64,000 nt of DNA from an uncultured Candidatus Saccharibacteria bacterium. GTDB lineage: Bacteria; Patescibacteriota; Minisyncoccia; Phycocordibacterales; UBA2100. How positions within the stretch are numbered: the stretch's first letter is position 1; each line of letters starts with the position of its first letter. This document shows, piece by piece, positions 24,626-30,854 of the stretch. The stretch lies in assembly GCA_964654205.1 (NCBI GenBank), contig CAZZHR010000002.1, forward strand, positions 65,800-129,799, given 5' to 3'. Under the pieces are notes generated by a model that saw nothing but the letters and a program-made list of their open reading frames with translations, ran no database searches and was not told the origin of the DNA. Made by a program: the position numbers and the translations under genes.

Positions 24626-27151
24626 CTACACGACAATGCGCCACCCGTCTGCGAGTAGGGGCTCGGCCTTCTTAAATTTCATTTCCTTGGTCTCAGTGCC
24701 ATTCGTAATAATGACTTTGTCGTTGCGACGGTATTCTTTCTTGCCCGCAATGGGCGCTTGTGCGGTGATACTCCGCGCCGCTCGCGATACCGCTTGTTCC
24801 CCCGCCGTCGCCGTGTGCACTCGCGGCGCCGCTCCGATATGTGGAATTAGTGTTCGTACGTGCGCAGCATACGTCTCCTCTAGCTGCTGGAAAAGCCTGC
24901 GACCTTCTTTTTTGTACTCGACGAGCGGATCGCGCTGTCCGTATGCGCGGAGATTCACGCTCGAGCGCAGGTACTCCATAGCTTCGAGATGCTCCACCCA
25001 GAGAAAGTCGATGCCCTGTAAGAGTATGCGGCGCACCGTCGGGACAAACGCATCCGTAAGCTCCTCTTTCTTTTTCTGTATAGCTTGAGCAAGAGCCTCA
25101 TCAGAGAGCGCGAGCCGCTCGAGCTCAGCCAGTACCGCCCCCTCTCCACCCGTCAGGAGGTCACGGCGACGTGTGTAGATGCTCTTGCGCTGGATGTTGA
25201 GCACATCGTCGTATGCGAGCACATGCTTGCGTGAGTCGAAGTGTATCTCCTCTATTCGCGTCTGCGCCTTCTCGAGCGAGCGCGTGATCATTTTGTTGAA
25301 TATCGGCTCGTCCTCGGGAATATTGAAGCTCCCCATCACCCGCTTGATGACGTCGCTCGCAAAAACGCGCATGAGACTGTCCTCAAGCGAAACGTAGAAC
25401 TGTGTCGCACCCGGGTCCCCTTGTCGGCCTGAGCGGCCACGCAGCTGGTTGTCGATGCGGCGCGCTTCGTGGCGCTCGGTGCCGAGCACAAAGAGGCCGC
25501 CGAGACTTTTTACTTCCTCGTAACTCTCCGGTGTCCCTGGATTGCCGCCGAGCTTAATGTCGACGCCTCGGCCGGCCATGTTGGTCGCGATGGTTACCGC
25601 GCCCTTCTTCCCGGCTTGCGCGACGATCTCACCCTCGCGCTCGTGATTCTTTGCGTTGAGCACTTCGTGCGGGATGCCCTCTTGCTTGAAGTACACCGAG
25701 AGCAGCTCGTTCTTTTCCACCGATACGGTACCGATGAGGACGGGCTGCCCCTTCTCGTGCAGCTCGCGCACGCGCTTCGCTATGGCTTTCATCTTGCCGT
25801 TCTCGGTCTGCAGGATGAGGTCGTCGAGGTCTGTTCGCTGAACGGGCTTGTTGGTCGGCACACTCGCTACGTTCAGGCCATATACCTTGTAGAATTCTTC
25901 GGACGAAGTGGCTGCGGTACCCGTCATGCCCGCGAGCTTGTCGTAGAGGCGGAAATAATTCTGGAAAGTTATCGATGCGAAAGTACGGCTCTCCTGTTGG
26001 ACTGAGACACCCTCCTTTGCCTCTATGGCCTGGTGGAGGCCATCAGACCACCTGCGCCCTGGCTGCATGCGACCCGTGAACTCGTCGACAATGATGACAG
26101 TCCCATCTCGCACTACGTAGTCCTTGTCTCGCTCAAAGAGAGCTTTTGCTCTCACGGCGGTCTCGAGGTGATGCACCATCTTGATGCCAGCATCCGTATA
26201 TATATTGTCTATCCCGAGCGCTGCCTGCGCCTTCTCGATACCTGCATCGGTCATCGCTATCTGTTTGTGCTTTTCGTCTACGGTGAAGTCCTCCTCGCGA
26301 ACCATGCCGCGCGCAATCTGCGCGAATCGCCCGTAGAGCGATTCTGCCTGCGAGACGGGTGCCGAGATAATCAGTGGCGTGCGTGCCTCGTCGATGAGGA
26401 TGGAATCTATCTCGTCGACTATTGCGAACCGGTACCCGCCATCCTGCGGGACGCGCTGACGCAAACCTGCTGCCTCGTATTCAAGGTTGTCGCGGAGGTA
26501 GTCGAAGCCGAATTCATTGTTGGTACCGTAGGTGATGTCGGCGGCATATGCTTCCCCGCGCGTACACGGACGAAGGAAATCTCGCGCCACCTTGAAGCTA
26601 CCTTCTGTATCCTGCTGCGCCTCTTCCTCCGCCTTGAGTTCCGGCGGAACATGCGATGGATCGTATATAAATGACGACTCGTGGTTGAGCACTCCCACGG
26701 TGAGGCCGAGTGCATAGTATATTTGCCCCATCCATGCGCCATCGCGGCGCGAGAGGTAGTCGTTGACAGTGATGACATGTACGCCTTTGCCCTCGAGGGC
26801 GTTGAGGTACGCTGGGAGCGTCGCGACGAGTGTCTTGCCCTCGCCCGTGCGCATCTCTGCGATGCCACCCTGGTGGAGTATCATCCCACCGATGAGCTGC
26901 ACGTCGAAGTGACGTTGACCGAGCGTCCTGCGCGACGCCTCCCTCACCGCGGCAAATGCCTCAGGCGCGAGGCTATCAAGGGATTCCCCGCCCGAAATGC
27001 GGACCTTGAATTCCGCGCTCTTTCCCTTGAGCGCCTCGTCGGTGAGCGCCGTAAACGTGTCTTCAAGTGCATTGACAGCAGCCACAATAGGCTGCGCCTT
27101 GCGGAGCGCCGCGACATTGGTATCTCCGAAGAGTCCTTTCCAAAATGACAT
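24626..27151 (-). CDS. secA: preprotein translocase ATPase SecA
   Basis: MRTGEGKTLVATLPAYLNAL, IVDEIDSILIDEARTPLIIS, GMTGTA, TNMAGRGVDIKLGG and LRGRSGRQGDPG. Trimmed to MSFWKGLFG. Confidence 0.95.
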   Translation of the reverse strand: MSFWKGLFGDTNVAALRKAQPIVAAVNALEDTFTALTDEALKGKSAEFKVRISGGESLDSLAPEAFAAVREASRRTLGQRHFDVQLIGGMILHQGGIAEMRTGEGKTLVATLPAYLNALEGKGVHVITVNDYLSRRDGAWMGQIYYALGLTVGVLNHESSFIYDPSHVPPELKAEEEAQQDTEGSFKVARDFLRPCTRGEAYAADITYGTNNEFGFDYLRDNLEYEAAGLRQRVPQDGGYRFAIVDEIDSILIDEARTPLIISAPVSQAESLYGRFAQIARGMVREEDFTVDEKHKQIAMTDAGIEKAQAALGIDNIYTDAGIKMVHHLETAVRAKALFERDKDYVVRDGTVIIVDEFTGRMQPGRRWSDGLHQAIEAKEGVSVQQESRTFASITFQNYFRLYDKLAGMTGTAATSSEEFYKVYGLNVASVPTNKPVQRTDLDDLILQTENGKMKAIAKRVRELHEKGQPVLIGTVSVEKNELLSVYFKQEGIPHEVLNAKNHEREGEIVAQAGKKGAVTIATNMAGRGVDIKLGGNPGTPESYEEVKSLGGLFVLGTERHEARRIDNQLRGRSGRQGDPGATQFYVSLEDSLMRVFASDVIKRVMGSFNIPEDEPIFNKMITRSLEKAQTRIEEIHFDSRKHVLAYDDVLNIQRKSIYTRRRDLLTGGEGAVLAELERLALSDEALAQAIQKKKEELTDAFVPTVRRILLQGIDFLWVEHLEAMEYLRSSVNLRAYGQRDPLVEYKKEGRRLFQQLEETYAAHVRTLIPHIGAAPRVHTATAGEQAVSRAARSITAQAPIAGKKEYRRNDKVIITNGTETKEMKFKKAEPLLADGWRIVV

Positions 27152-27189
27152 GGATACCCATCCTACCACTGTGCGACTTTTCAATCCAT

Positions 27190-27222
27190 GAAAAGAAGAA
27201 GCCTCCTTTCGGAGGCTTCTTC
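27190..27222 (-). terminator. rho-independent terminator: 12-bp stem GAAGAAGCCTCC/GGAGGCTTCTTC, then TTTTC
   Basis: A perfect stem with a 4-nt loop and a T-tract on the minus strand, 5 nt downstream of the 23-codon ORF stop. Confidence 0.8.
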
Positions 27223-27226
27223 GGGA

Positions 27227-27298
27227 CTACGCGCGCTTCTTGCGCTTCGTGGCCTTCTTTTTCTTGGCTGTCTTTTTCGCCTTCTTTTTCTTTGCCAT
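27227..27298 (-). CDS. unannotated 23-aa polybasic micro-protein MAKKKKAKKTAKKKKATKRKKRA
   Basis: I translated it by hand. It is below the ORF-track cutoff. It runs ATG to TAG, has its own strong terminator, and an AT-rich -10-like AATATT lies 7 nt upstream. Confidence 0.45.
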   Translation of the reverse strand: MAKKKKAKKTAKKKKATKRKKRA

Positions 27299-27439
27299 GG
27301 TCGTAAATATTTTGAGAGTATTAAACTCGACCTTCGCTTCGCGCGCGAAACGCTACAGCGTTTACATAATTATTGCACTCATGCATGTAAAGAAATGTTT
27401 TTTGAAAAAATTGTGTGGATAACTCTTTTATTTTTTAAA

Positions 27440-27759
27440 ATGTATCTCTGATGTAGAAATCAGTTATATGAAATTACTTTCACAGGAAGATATTCAGTAC
27501 GTACTTGAGAAGACATTTCCTTCCGTACACTCCGCGTCGCTCGCCCATACGCAGAAACACCCTTCTGAGGGGTGTTTCTGAAAGACGCACAGCGGAGGAC
27601 GGGTGCGAGCTCCAAAAAAAGTGAAAGTCTTATGTGAGTGCCGCCGCCCTCCGCAATACGCCCTTTTAGTCCTACGACAAAGAGTAACACCCTGTCCTTG
27701 AGTGACAACCTCTATTCGTTGCACACTACTCAGATACGAGACTTGCGTATAATCAGCCA
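27440..27759 (-). ncRNA. candidate structured RNA of unknown class, possibly a long 3'UTR
   Basis: It lies downstream of a duplicated TATAAT promoter element at 27766-27771. It contains a 10-bp hairpin (27553-27579), a long imperfect hairpin (GCGGAGG 27592-27598 pairs with CCTCCGC 27648-27654) and a terminal hairpin at 27448-27463 followed by a T-rich run. No convincing ORF is present. Confidence 0.3.
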
Positions 27760-27772
27760 TGGCGGATTATAA
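27747..27772. promoter_or_regulatory. 26-bp near-palindrome GTATAATCAGCCATGGCGGATTATAA, a candidate operator that contains TATAAT
   Basis: Half-sites TATAATC / GATTATA lie around a central CCATGG. The 18-bp core ATGGCGGATTATAAACAA (27759-27776) is repeated exactly at 28456-28473. Confidence 0.5.
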
Positions 27773-27786
27773 ACAAGCGCGTGAGC

Positions 27787-28422
27787 CTATCGTTCTCCCA
27801 AACCGAAGTGCACTCGCAAGGGTTTATCGTACTCGATTGCGTCCGCAATAATGTATCTCACCTCCGTTCGCAGCGATGCGTCTAGCTTCAGAAGCGTTAT
27901 GATTTCTTCACAATCATACGGGTGCACCCATACGCTGTTTTGCAATCGGTGAAAACCAAGTCTCTTTAATATTTCGCGTACACGATCTCGCGTAGAGCGC
28001 CGCGCATGCGGAATGTCGAATATCACGACTCGCCAACGTCCGTCCCATCGACGCGGCCTAGGTATTTCTACGGCCGAAAGCCGGATGCGTTCCGCATGTG
28101 ACTTTCCCCTCTCCGTCAGTATGGGGTAACGTTTGCCCGAGTGCCGCATAAACTCGACCATCCCTTTTTTCTTCAATCTCGAGAGTGTCTCCCGCAGCCT
28201 CTGCGTGGGCTGCGGGGGCAGGATTACATCAAGGTGTTCTCTTTTGATGAGCGCAGCGACTTTCGGCGCCATCACCGCTACCGTGAGAATTCCTCCGAGA
28301 GCGAGCGTACCTATCACAGCTCTTTCTATCGATCCGCGTCTCAACCGCAGACGAACTCCACTCTCCTGGGATACGCGCGATTCTTGCTCACGCCTCTTCT
28401 GGGTATTCTGTTTTTGCCGCAT
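27787..28422 (-). CDS. PaaX-family-like regulator with a Cas2/VapD-fold C-terminal domain
   Basis: LRETLSRLKKKGMVE (winged-helix-like), then WDGRWRVVIFDIPHARRSTRDRVREILKRLGFHRLQNSVWVHPYD, typical of PaaX C-terminal or Cas2-like domains. ATG 28422 has TACAAT 6 nt upstream. TTG 28437 is an alternative start. Confidence 0.7.
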   Translation of the reverse strand: MRQKQNTQKRREQESRVSQESGVRLRLRRGSIERAVIGTLALGGILTVAVMAPKVAALIKREHLDVILPPQPTQRLRETLSRLKKKGMVEFMRHSGKRYPILTERGKSHAERIRLSAVEIPRPRRWDGRWRVVIFDIPHARRSTRDRVREILKRLGFHRLQNSVWVHPYDCEEIITLLKLDASLRTEVRYIIADAIEYDKPLRVHFGLGER

Positions 28423-28428
28423 GAGTGC

Positions 28429-28434
28429 ATTGTA
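28429..28434 (-). promoter_or_regulatory. -10 box TACAAT 6 nt before ATG 28422 (leaderless geometry)
   Basis: The minus strand reads gtTACAATgcactcATG. Confidence 0.45.
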
Positions 28435-28443
28435 CAAACTTGT

Positions 28444-28469
28444 TTATAACTCGCTATGGCGGATTATAA
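28444..28469. promoter_or_regulatory. second copy of the palindromic operator/promoter element: TTATAACTCGCTATGGCGGATTATAA
   Basis: An imperfect palindrome that shares the exact 18-bp core with 27759-27776. It lies 22-50 nt upstream of the regulator gene start. Confidence 0.5.
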
Positions 28470-28622
28470 ACAATTCAGGAATGTTCCCTTTAGTCCTGTT
28501 GTGCAGTGTGCATAAACTGAATACCGCCCTTTCGGGCGGTACTTCAGCGACTTTCAATCTGCGAGCCACACTTTGTGGCACTCACGTATTCATTATATGT
28601 ACCGCGCAGCGACGCGCAAGTA

Positions 28623-30854
28623 CTAGAGTACTTCGGCCGTACCGGTACGTATCTGCTCAATGACAGGATCCGCCTGCTCTCCAATACCCGGGATAGCGCG
28701 CTTCGCTTCTTCGAGCGCCGCGATCGCCGCCGCGCGATTGCCGGAGAGGTAGTGTATCGCGGCAAGCGTGAAATAGAGCTGCGCATCCTGTGGATTTGCG
28801 CGGATGGCAGCTTCCCAAATCGGCACCGCGCGCACGAGCTGGTTGGTCGAGCGATACGCGGCGAGCACGCGCGAATCGGCCGCCTGGCCTTTCTCGACGT
28901 ATGGTGCGAGCACCTCTTCTCCCTCAGCCATCTGGCCGTTCAAAATGAGCCCAGAGCCGTAAAGCACGGCCGCAGTCGCGAATGACGCGTCGAGTTCGTG
29001 CGCCTGTTTGTAATACGAGAGCGCCGAGGCGGTATCGCCGCGCGCTATCGCGTTCTCCGCAAGCTGGAACATTATTGCCTGCTTTTTCGGAGAGTCTTCG
29101 AGCGCCCGTTCGTACGCTGCCTTCGCATCGTCGTGCAATCCATAGGCTCCATAGAGCACGCCGAGAAAGAGTGGAAAACGCGCATCCAGCGGCGACATGT
29201 CCTCCTGTTTCCGCATTTCCGATTCCGCGAGCGCAAAGAACTGCTGCTTCGTGGCCTCGGGTATGTCGAGCTGGCTCGCCTGTGCTGCCATTTGCGCGAG
29301 CTGCTCCCGGGCTTCCTGCATGCCAAATGTGCCGAGCTCAATCGACTGCCTCATGTACTCCAGATTCGTTGCAATCTGACCCTGCGGTGCGATCGCCTGG
29401 AGCAGAAGCCTGTTCGCAGCGAGCGGCTTTTGGTTGACACCCCATGCGAGGAAAAGCAGCGCGAGTGCACATGCGAGCGCGATGTACGGGATGTACGCAC
29501 GGTTGACTACTGCGCTCCAGAGCACTTTTGCTTCTTGCGCCTTACTGGCTCGATATGCGATAAACGCGAGCACCGTCCCAAAGAGGATGTAGCTTGTCAC
29601 GTTGTCGAAGACGAAGAAGTTGTGCACGAAGTAGCCCGCGAGGAGTCCCGTGAGTATCGAGCGCTCCGCTATCGAGAATCCATCCGGCCGTCCCGTCAAG
29701 ACACTTCGCCAGAGCGCGAATAGCGCAGCGAAGAATATCGAGAGATACGCGAGCAGGCCGAGCGTTCCCCCTGCGACCCACCAGTCGAAAATGATGTTGT
29801 GCACGCGGTCAAACCACGGCTCCTGGCTGTGCATGCGCGGGTCGTAGTACTTGTCGAAAACGAGCGCGTAATTCTCCTGACCCCAGCCCAAAATGGGCTT
29901 CTCCTGTACACCCTGCCATGCCATCTGCCAGTTGATGAATCGCGCCTTCGTCGTCGCGTCGTCGAGTGAGATGGTCGCAAGACGCTGGAGGAAGCCGATG
30001 CGCTGCACCCACGTCTGCTCTTTCACTAAGAAGAACCCGCCGATAATGACGAGGAGCCCTACCACCATCGCCGCCGACGCTCTCCATGCGTTGCGCGAAT
30101 TTTGAGCCTGCATGAGCACGAGCAGCGCGGAAAGGAGCGCGCCGCCGACGAGACCGAGAATCGCACCGCGCGTACCGGTGAGGAGAAGTGCGATGGTGTC
30201 GAGCACAATGATAGAGCCGTACATAAGCGAGATGCCGACGCGCTTTCCCTCGCCCCTTTCCACCCACTGCTGCGCCCAGAGCATCGCCGCGAGGAATATG
30301 TGGAACAGCATGTATGCAGCGAAGTAGATGGGGTTGCCGAATGTCGCGTCGATGCGGCCGCTCAGTCCCGCTGCTCCACCCTGACCGAGTGCAATCTGGC
30401 CGGTAACTTGGAAGAGGCCGTATATCGAGAGGTACGCCGAGACGCCGAGCGTCGTCCACCACAGCCACCGCCAGAGTTTCTCCGTCTGGAGCATCGAGGC
30501 TGCAACCACGGTGTAGACGAGGAGATGGGCAAGCGTCACCCACCCGTCCATGCGCTCGTAGTTGCTCCAGATGCTCTTAAAGGGGTATTCGCCGAAGATG
30601 TCGGCAAGCCCGATGATGGCAACAAATACAGCGAGTGCCGCGAGCACCCATGAGCGCCGGGGTCTATACGCGGGATTGACGAGTGCGAGCGCGAGCCACG
30701 CTGCCGCGCTTATCTCGACAACGATGCGAAAGGCGAAGTTTTTACCCGTGATGTAGGGGAAAAAGAGCGACGAAGTGACGAGGAGGCACACGAAGGGGAG
30801 CGCAAATACGCCAGCAAGGGCAATGAATCGGAGCGTCTTCTCAAGGACAGTCAT
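28623..30854 (-). CDS. O-antigen ligase (Wzy_C)-domain polytopic membrane protein with C-terminal TPR repeats
   Basis: Many TM helices. LLTGTRGAILGLVGG and FDRVHNIIFDWWVAGGTLGLLAY fit the O-antigen ligase core. The C-terminal 280 aa or so are TPR-like (AxxYYKQAxELD...). Trimmed to MTVLEKT, with TAGAAT 7 nt upstream. Confidence 0.78.
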   Translation of the reverse strand: MTVLEKTLRFIALAGVFALPFVCLLVTSSLFFPYITGKNFAFRIVVEISAAAWLALALVNPAYRPRRSWVLAALAVFVAIIGLADIFGEYPFKSIWSNYERMDGWVTLAHLLVYTVVAASMLQTEKLWRWLWWTTLGVSAYLSIYGLFQVTGQIALGQGGAAGLSGRIDATFGNPIYFAAYMLFHIFLAAMLWAQQWVERGEGKRVGISLMYGSIIVLDTIALLLTGTRGAILGLVGGALLSALLVLMQAQNSRNAWRASAAMVVGLLVIIGGFFLVKEQTWVQRIGFLQRLATISLDDATTKARFINWQMAWQGVQEKPILGWGQENYALVFDKYYDPRMHSQEPWFDRVHNIIFDWWVAGGTLGLLAYLSIFFAALFALWRSVLTGRPDGFSIAERSILTGLLAGYFVHNFFVFDNVTSYILFGTVLAFIAYRASKAQEAKVLWSAVVNRAYIPYIALACALALLFLAWGVNQKPLAANRLLLQAIAPQGQIATNLEYMRQSIELGTFGMQEAREQLAQMAAQASQLDIPEATKQQFFALAESEMRKQEDMSPLDARFPLFLGVLYGAYGLHDDAKAAYERALEDSPKKQAIMFQLAENAIARGDTASALSYYKQAHELDASFATAAVLYGSGLILNGQMAEGEEVLAPYVEKGQAADSRVLAAYRSTNQLVRAVPIWEAAIRANPQDAQLYFTLAAIHYLSGNRAAAIAALEEAKRAIPGIGEQADPVIEQIRTGTAEVL

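Follow-up and report, generated by a model that had tools for sequence, protein, structure and literature searches.

What might explain why one 18-nucleotide (nt) sequence stands on both sides of a single small gene in an uncultured Candidatus Saccharibacteria bacterium? The sequence, ATGGCGGATTATAAACAA, occurs in exact copies at 27759-27776 and 28456-28473 of a 64-kb stretch of contig CAZZHR010000002.1 (hereafter the window), and the copies flank a minus-strand open reading frame (ORF) of 211 amino acids that encodes a PaaX/Cas2-like protein. An initial annotation of this DNA took the repeat for a promoter/operator element that serves both the regulator gene and a structured RNA of ~300 nt lying beyond it. 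Judged by comparison with homologous loci, the duplicated element is probably the cognate operator pair of a widespread PaaX/Cas2-like protein family, and goes beyond a local duplication. We regard it as probable that the palindromes are operators of the regulator that they bracket, with the autorepression and the second-site role proposed below. The structured RNA is real, but it is a shorter, separate gene with its own promoter, outside the regulator circuit.

A duplicated palindrome brackets the regulator gene

Each 18-mer is part of a full repeat unit of 36 nt (27741-27776 and 28438-28473), whose copies are 83% identical, and each copy forms a 34-bp imperfect palindrome: O-dn, downstream of the gene, at 27743-27776, and O-up, upstream of it, at 28440-28473, the latter reading TTGTTTATAATCCGC-CATA-GCGAGTTATAAACAA on the gene strand. 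The 26-bp palindromes described initially are genuine, but their extent was underestimated, for they are the inner portion of the 34-bp palindromes; the assignment of TATAAT to the minus strand of both copies was accurate. Site searches covered the whole window and, in other loci, ~3 kb on either side of the gene. When up to three mismatches are allowed, the 18-mer has four matches in the window, which are the two copies and their own reverse-complement arms, whereas shuffled sequences are expected to give 0.02. With two copies only in 64 kb, the 18-mer is not a dispersed repeat. The half-site of the window is present at the two flanking positions only, as is the case in 66 of 70 loci.

The bracketed gene occupies 27787-28422 of the minus strand, from an ATG at 28422 to a stop codon at 27787. 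O-dn begins, from 27776, 10 nt beyond the stop codon, and the 26-bp core of O-up ends 22 nt ahead of the ATG, both in agreement with the initial annotation. Relative to a leaderless start, O-up spans approximately -18 to -51.

The bracket recurs across Patescibacteria

Homologues of the regulator are plentiful in Patescibacteria, with 203 protein clusters and at least 537 loci in species-representative genomes, and all of the relatives found come from this group. From these, a sample of 80 homologous loci from GTDB species genomes (L001-L080) was used to compare flanks; where counts are out of 81, the window locus has been added. Approximately three quarters of the 80 loci possess a 25-45-bp repeat common to the region before the start codon and the 0-60 nt past the stop codon. 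Palindromes with arms of at least 14 bp are found on at least one side of the gene in 70 of 81 loci and on both sides in 41. They vary by lineage, with arms such as TTGTTTATAA..., TTACCTAAC..., TTGCAATAAAT... and ATCCCCACATCTG... and with CTATAG, CG(AC/GT)CG, CGATCG or CGGCCG at their centres, and the two copies inside one locus match each other. Paralogues within the same genome use differing palindromes (L016/L030, L008/L051, L021/L080 and L036/L049), and specificity therefore resides in the module and not in a host factor. On these comparisons the operator bracket is a hallmark of the regulator family, and the palindromes go with the encoded protein. Regulators with the recognition-helix motif DPxQR[LI]xE have TTGTTTA..TAAACAA sites in 20 of 22 loci, compared with 2 of 48 loci with other helices, a difference that is confounded by phylogeny.

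L077 (660-730), L050 (1338-1375) and L052 (151-190) have a third copy of their own palindrome, 1.5-2.3 kb away from the regulator gene, and the one in L077 is directly upstream of a glutamate dehydrogenase gene. These copies possibly mark additional regulon members.

The sites resemble protein-binding DNA rather than RNA hairpins

To describe the anatomy of the sites, the upstream and downstream copies of 35 loci were aligned by their centres. Identity between the two copies is 96-99% at positions ±1-4 from the centre, 73-83% at ±5-8 and 91-99% at ±11-17, and beyond ±20 it drops to a background of ~35-44%. By this measure the site is tripartite, consisting of a conserved core and two outer half-sites. 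The relative orientation of the two copies is free, being direct in 23 loci and inverted in 12. Mismatches between the arms show no G-U enrichment on either strand (29 vs 34 in upstream copies, 22 vs 25 in downstream copies), which argues for selection on the DNA, as a symmetric site for a protein, and against selection for a hairpin in RNA.

Could the palindromes nevertheless act in the mRNA, as hairpins at its 5' and 3' ends that stabilise it, terminate it or expose it to processing by the Cas2-like RNase fold? As RNA they would fold into perfect stems of 15-20 bp, the downstream copies are often the better palindromes and are extended by G/C clamps (L001, L046, L066 and L076), and some Cas2 proteins have been reported as RNases. 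We consider this explanation unlikely, not only on account of the missing strand-specific G-U bias. Positions ±5-8 are often non-complementary while the core and outer half-sites are conserved, a pattern typical of protein-DNA sites, the leaderless arrangement places the upstream palindrome before the transcription start and leaves it untranscribed, and U-tracts are absent after the downstream palindromes of the homologous loci.

In the window, the regulator -10 box, read from the sequence, is TACAAT (28434-28429, minus strand), and it is followed after 6 nt by the ATG at 28422. A TAnnnT box exactly 6 nt ahead of the start codon is shared by 32 of the 81 regulators and by 48 of 268 other genes at these loci. 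Leaderless transcription therefore appears common in these Patescibacteria loci, and the leaderless start that was initially assigned to the regulator is upheld. The TATAAT inside the palindrome is unlikely to be the regulator's -10 box, because in many lineages the palindrome lacks it and the -10 box stands apart, 6 nt ahead of the ATG; it is a lineage-specific feature, missing from the palindromes of most lineages. Across the homologous loci the palindrome ends 0-40 nt ahead of the start codon, and it either includes the -10 box or stops 14-30 nt before the ATG. The core promoter is overlapped in both arrangements, which, as far as sequence can indicate, is the classical position of a repressor site. 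Autorepression is well supported by this comparative evidence, in keeping with the autoregulation by a winged-helix protein that was first suggested from the window.

The regulator is a PaaX-like protein with a Cas2-like domain

The 211-amino-acid product is identical to database protein P0001, the start of which coincides with the ATG at 28422. Four regions can be discerned: a basic N-terminus, a hydrophobic helix region, a recognition helix followed by a β-wing (~68-114) and a Cas2-like ferredoxin domain (~125-208). In Pfam, the PaaX central Cas2-like domain PF20803 (PaaX_M) matches with E=1.6e-21 and 76.6 bits, above its cut-off of 24 bits, and Cas2 PF09827 with E=2.8e-6 and 27.8 bits, above its cut-off of 23.8. 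The NCBIfam Cas2 model TIGR01573 passes its cut-off of 24.5 with 31.5 bits, for which reason databases call this protein family Cas2, whereas the PaaX equivalog model TIGR02277, at 51.1 bits, is far under its cut-off of 264.55. The PaaX C-terminal effector domain PF08223 has no Pfam match in the protein, which stops after the Cas2-like domain.

An AlphaFold2 model with a predicted local distance difference test (pLDDT) score of 78 is confident for a helix at 72-85, a β-wing at 89-102 and a ferredoxin-like domain at 130-206. A Foldseek search with this model ranks E. coli PaaX (8a39) first and Rv0674 next, followed by many Cas2 structures, with TM-scores of ~0.5-0.6 when normalised to the Cas2 chains. 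PaaX 8a39 is likewise the best solved relative in a family-profile search, with a match that runs from the recognition helix through the wing into the first part of the Cas2-like domain. The Asp at the Cas2 catalytic position (FDI) is invariant in the regulator family. Residues 33-55 (AVIGTLALGGILTVAVMAPKVAALI), which follow the highly basic N-terminus, form a conserved and very hydrophobic stretch that AlphaFold2 models as one long helix of low confidence; it could correspond to buried winged-helix helices, an oligomerisation helix or a membrane anchor.

The genomic context of the gene is neither that of paa nor that of CRISPR-Cas. No paa genes are found near the regulator in the window or in relatives, Tandem Repeats Finder detects no CRISPR-like array in the 64 kb, and no cas-like gene is apparent by size or translation among the four genes on each side, the ORFs of the window not having been scanned for Cas1. 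The PADLOC and PHROGs defence libraries return Cas2 and generic regulator models only. Neighbours in the window are secA, gatB, a tetratricopeptide-repeat (TPR) membrane protein gene and glycosyltransferase-like and other glycosylation genes. A phage-repressor origin was rejected, as the viral contigs of IMG/VR contain a single relative of the regulator. We found no literature on this protein family or on the two RNAs described below.

A proposed mechanism and what weighs against it

We propose that the two palindromes are the cognate DNA sites of the protein encoded between them, a dimeric winged-helix and Cas2-like protein homologous to the N-terminal two thirds of PaaX. The protein would recognise a tripartite site with an 8-bp core, here CCAT(A/G)G, and outer half-sites TTGTTTA / TAAACAA that are ~28 bp apart. 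The upstream site is predicted to cover the -35 region and spacer of the leaderless promoter (TACAAT, 6 nt, ATG), and because it lies on the core promoter, its occupancy would shut off the regulator's own transcription. The downstream site is most likely a second operator of the regulator unit, at which cooperative bridging would raise occupancy through a loop of ~700 bp around the regulator gene; alternatively, it may act as a protein roadblock at the 3' end of the gene.

The genes beside the regulator unit are rnhB/dnaE in one clade, secA in the window, and glutamate dehydrogenase, DsbB-family and FAD-linked oxidase genes elsewhere. These are unrelated housekeeping neighbours, and the downstream site therefore belongs to the regulator unit and not to a particular target. 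The gene that follows the downstream palindrome is convergent in 21 of 51 homologous loci. We infer a second operator suited to cooperative looping or to roadblocking.

Several observations are harder to reconcile with the proposed mechanism. On the side of the protein, the N-terminal 67 residues have low confidence in the AlphaFold2 model, the winged-helix domain is predicted confidently only as one helix and the wing, and the hydrophobic residues 33-55 could be a membrane or oligomerisation helix. The pairwise (Mantel-type) correlation between divergence of the DNA-binding region and divergence of the half-sites is weak (rho 0.10) and no better than the correlation for the Cas2 domain, and the categorical test of helix motifs given above was used instead. 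On the side of the DNA, the distance from stop codon to downstream site varies from -37 to +92 nt, although it is mostly 0-50 nt, and in the rnhB/dnaE clade the downstream site is fixed ~30 nt upstream of the dnaE -10 box, so that in some lineages it may influence the next gene. Finally, a transcription factor that largely regulates itself brings the cell no obvious benefit.

The cassette is unlikely to be a transposable element

Another way to view the unit is as a selfish mobile cassette, in which the palindromes are element ends recognised by the Cas2-like/winged-helix protein, comparable with RAYT-REP, IS200/IS605 or pdif. The cassette is found between different, unrelated housekeeping genes depending on lineage (rnhB/dnaE, secA or glutamate dehydrogenase), some genomes contain several cassettes, each with a different cognate palindrome, and the Asp at the Cas2 catalytic position is invariant. 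There is also a natural comparison of filled and empty sites: L127 has the regulator cassette and L082 does not, despite flanks that are 96-100% identical, and the spacer at the cassette position is 829 nt in L127 and 41 nt in L082. The break points are not at the palindromes but 53 and 62 nt outside them, with extra unique DNA of these lengths on either side, there is no target duplication, and the L127 insert carries a different promoter for the downstream RNA. In addition, the invariant residues of the family contain no HUH (H-x-H), tyrosine-recombinase or serine-recombinase signature, there are just two copies of the site per 64 kb, the copies are of mixed orientation, and viral contigs yield one family match. 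A mobile cassette is accordingly an improbable explanation. The sequence comparison fits gain and loss of the cassette by recombination within the conserved flanking RNA genes, and not transposition via the palindromes.

A 12-nt direct repeat, CC(C)TTT(T)AGTCCT, at 27662 and 28486, was considered as a target-site duplication and rejected: it does not adjoin the palindromes, it is one of ~20 similar chance repeats, and the filled and empty sites differ without any duplication.

The neighbouring structured RNA is a separate gene

What, then, is the structured RNA towards which the minus-strand TATAAT of the downstream palindrome is aimed? The region in question, 27440-27759, was said to contain strong hairpins and no credible ORF, and both statements are borne out. 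Homologous stretches differ by indels of 1-7 nt, which exclude a coding frame and dispose of the 88-amino-acid ORF there, and protein coding in 27440-27760 was rejected on these frame-breaking indels. The minus strand folds with -65 kcal/mol (z=-5.8), compared with -48 kcal/mol (z=-3.0) for the plus strand, which places the hairpin RNA on the minus strand. A structured RNA is present and covarying, but its conserved part is ~95 nt (27580-27673) and not ~300 nt. It comprises an 87-nt hairpin (27666-27580) with a 23-bp covarying basal stem and a conserved internal-loop and apical domain, GGCGGCACUCAC..GACUUUCA..GGAGCUCGCACC, and the hairpin, as the conserved structured unit, is contained in a predicted transcript of ~95-125 nt. 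A 14-bp hairpin directly after it (27552-27580, minus strand), whose sequence is not conserved between loci, may be the terminator.

By BLAST, 27440-27759 matches only two of the regulator loci, L017 (85 nt, 83.5%) and L057 (61 nt, 83.6%). A pattern built from conserved blocks, GGCGGCACTC-N10-35-GGAGCTCGCACC, retrieved further loci from metagenome contigs, at least 120 in number, and ~113 of the matches listed share the long hairpin; the invariance of the two blocks is partly imposed by this search pattern. At least 110 metagenome contigs have the RNA, placed between secA and the gene for the TPR membrane protein. RNAalifold, applied to 109 distinct sequences, gives 28 pairs, 20 of them with compensatory double changes, and in the named structure 94.2% of cells are paired, compared with 74% in shuffles and 40-52% with slid partners (covariation score 0.548 vs 0.17). 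G-U is the commonest pair at four positions. The RNA therefore has the generic features of a structured RNA: covariation, strand-specific G-U pairs and no conserved reading frame.

The RNA also possesses its own promoter. An extended -10 box, TGTTACTCT (27689-27681, minus strand), predicts an RNA start near 27673. Such boxes form a position-specific peak across loci: of 105 loci, 57 have TAnnnT at -36 to -34 relative to the invariant block, and 41 of these have the extended TGnTAnnnT. Among the matches listed, secA is within reach in 90 hairpin-RNA loci and the TPR/O-antigen-ligase-like gene in 77. The RNA is inverted relative to secA in ~20 loci, and it is therefore an independent gene.

The model of the initial annotation, in which the downstream palindrome drives or controls the structured RNA so that regulator and RNA form a regulated pair, does not fit well with these findings. 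The window itself is suggestive, with a minus-strand TATAAT in O-dn pointing at the RNA, and the order regulator, palindrome, hairpin RNA recurs in L057, L124, L127 and L164. Against it stand the RNA's own conserved extended -10 box at a fixed distance, the variable gap between palindrome and RNA start (62 to ~150 nt) and the separate distributions of the two genes: a PaaX-like gene adjoins the RNA in ~7 of 116 loci and is missing from the other ~109 (among the matches listed), and only 2 of the 80 other regulator loci are near such an RNA, 78 having none within 3 kb. In L017 the hairpin RNA is inverted relative to the regulator, and both the convergent genes after the palindrome in 21 of 51 loci and the lack of TATAAT in the palindromes of most lineages are at odds with a promoter role. 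We therefore give little credence to a shared operator for regulator and RNA.

To which class does the RNA belong? The initial annotation recognised none, and a search with the Rfam 15 covariance models gave no relevant match in 26500-29500 at E<=10 or in the 64 kb at gathering score; on 13 homologous loci the Rfam matches were at chance level. ARAGORN identified no tRNA or tmRNA in the window, and a generic promoter and terminator scan yielded nothing useful. RNase P was considered, as the order of intermolecular helices resembles P2/P3/P4 and a GAAAGUC motif is present, and was rejected together with signal recognition particle (SRP) RNA and 6S RNA: none has a covariance-model match, and the two RNAs total only ~170 nt. 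The GGAA/AGCA motifs of SRP RNA are also missing, the two parts are transcribed separately, and one part is inverted in ~20 loci.

The hairpin-RNA locus may be subject to rearrangement. In L081, L092, L093, L101, L129, L147, L152, L158 and ~12 more loci the RNA gene has the opposite orientation with respect to secA, to the TPR gene and to the partner small RNA (sRNA) described below, although the gene order around it is unchanged. L127 and L158 are 99.5% identical in the region of the partner sRNA and only 83% identical in secA, a difference that points to possible recombination or mosaicism at this locus. Inserts of 130-190 nt, of at least three types, are found after the hairpin RNA gene, in the region 70-300 nt downstream (L088, L094, L100, L124, L169 and L195; L127, L161, L174 and L183; L132 and L160). 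Each insert opens with GGACGGGUGCGAGC, the antisense of the RNA 3' arm, and closes with a second copy of the 3' arm and a U-run; the inserts resemble small structured elements directed at, or duplicating, the 3' end of the hairpin RNA gene.

A partner small RNA pairs with the apical loop

On the other side of the cassette, a second conserved RNA that is not in Rfam, the partner sRNA, is encoded at 28511-28585 of the minus strand. Its promoter is strong, with TTGCGC (28619-28614), a 16-nt spacer and TATAAT (28597-28592) located 6 nt from the first G. From its 5' end the sRNA consists of GUGAGUGCCAC, a covarying hairpin, UGAAAGUC (28556-28549) and a terminator hairpin. Some 60 metagenome loci have this sRNA. 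In most, its 5' end precedes the conserved hairpin-RNA core by ~100-300 nt, and in many by ~145 nt; in the window the regulator cassette separates the two RNA genes.

The UGAAAGUC segment of the partner sRNA finds its complement in the apical loop of the hairpin RNA, at GACUUUCA (27629-27622). The two segments covary between loci, with compensatory variants AGAAAGUC:GACUUUCU, GAUGAAAAACU:AGUUUUUCAUC, GACGAAAAACU:AGUUUUUCGUC, GAUGAAAAUC:GAUUUUCAUU and AAAAUGAAAGUCU:AGACUUUUAUUUU. Each RNA is more complementary to its own partner than to permuted ones (p=0.0002, 59 unique pairs). A second complementarity links the 5' GUGAGU of the partner sRNA with ACUCAC beside the apical loop. Since the two RNA genes do not always have the same relative orientation, the RNAs must pair in trans. 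We also considered whether the partner sRNA opens with a tiny leaderless ORF (GUG AGU GCC...) and rejected this, as neither the frame nor the length of the ORF is conserved.

Other features towards secA

Beyond the hairpin RNA, 27300-27550 is a variable spacer together with the promoter region of a gene for a 23-amino-acid Lys-rich protein (27227-27298) that precedes secA. This Lys/Arg-rich ORF, MAKKKKAKKTAKKKKATKRKKRA, on the minus strand, is followed by a strong terminator (27195-27222) just upstream of secA, and similar or longer ORFs with KKA repeats are found at the same position in related loci, for example at 4095-4271 of L057. Ahead of the promoter that serves the mini-protein and secA, positions 27414-27422 form a perfect DnaA box (plus strand TGTGGATAA, minus strand TTATCCACA), which is kept at an equivalent place in most related loci. 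An origin of replication (oriC) at this position was rejected, as the box is single and the window contains no cluster; since there is no such cluster, the box looks like part of a DnaA-responsive promoter rather than an oriC.

Implications for regulation in reduced genomes

Patescibacteria have tiny genomes and few recognisable regulators, and here a family of at least 537 loci is mislabelled Cas2 in databases. The bracketing operators give each member of the family a predicted, lineage-specific DNA target, and taken together the members make up a natural collection of orthogonal pairs of repressor and operator. Should the second site work by looping or as a roadblock, the arrangement would insulate genes compactly where intergenic regions are very short. 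Few non-coding sequences at these loci are as conserved as the hairpin RNA and its partner sRNA, and both are candidates for a new conserved RNA function in a largely uncultivated phylum.

Taken together, the locus could tentatively be viewed as two undescribed systems side by side, an operator-bracketed repressor family and a bipartite small-RNA system, a combined interpretation that we hold to be possible rather than probable. The first would be a Patescibacteria-wide set of stand-alone winged-helix/Cas2-like proteins in orthogonal operator-gene-operator cassettes, whose main output may be self-insulation or roadblocking between housekeeping operons, and not the classical regulation of other genes; alternatively, it may be addiction or defence by a still-active Cas2-type nuclease under tight, looped autorepression. 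The second, an invariant-loop hairpin RNA and a partner sRNA joined by a covarying helix between the TPR/O-antigen-ligase-like gene and secA, could be a new housekeeping ribonucleoprotein or riboregulator specific to reduced genomes.

Comparison with known systems

The closest known relative of the regulator is PaaX, the phenylacetyl-CoA-responsive repressor of the paa genes in E. coli and Pseudomonas (8a39), with which it shares a homologous recognition helix, wing and Cas2-like middle domain. PaaX has a long bipartite palindromic operator of similar span, reported for E. coli as TGATTC-N27-GAATCA, and represses its own promoter by occlusion (PMC9493321), properties that are predicted here from sequence and from site position, respectively. 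Unlike PaaX, the regulator has 211 amino acids and not 316, is without the C-terminal effector domain, scores 51 bits on TIGR02277 and has no paa genes nearby. It keeps the Cas2 FDI motif, which is missing from E. coli PaaX in the aligned stretch, it has a second operator past the stop codon, and the relatives found are all from Patescibacteria. With Cas2 and VapD it has in common the ferredoxin-like fold and the motif vvFDI..R..R..L...GF.rlQ.SVW, but it is fused to a DNA-binding region, it is not accompanied by a CRISPR-like array in the 64 kb, and its neighbours are secA, gatB and glycosylation genes.

The arrangement of the sites is reminiscent of lambda CI with OL/OR and of lac O1-O2/O3, where cognate operators stand on both sides of the repressor gene or its promoter, separated by a few hundred bp to kb. 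By analogy, cooperative looping between the bracketing operators would tighten autoregulation, although the regulator described here has no phage context, given one IMG/VR relative, and a single site on each side. RAYT-REP and IS200/IS605 elements likewise have a gene between two copies of a lineage-specific palindrome that covaries with the encoded protein, but here the sites are not dispersed, there is no HUH/Tyr motif, and the indel break points are off the palindromes.

Among known RNAs, the hairpin RNA, which is long (~90 nt) and irregular and has an invariant region at its internal loop, recalls single-hairpin housekeeping RNAs such as 4.5S SRP RNA, but it has no GGAA tetraloop or AGCA loop, and the Rfam models of SRP, 6S, RNase P and tmRNA are all negative. 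The two RNA genes differ from the loop-mediated antisense pairs CopA/CopT and RNAI/RNAII in being chromosomal, separately promoted and not antisense-encoded, and resemble them in that the apical loop of a hairpin RNA pairs, with covariation, with a single-stranded stretch of a second small RNA.

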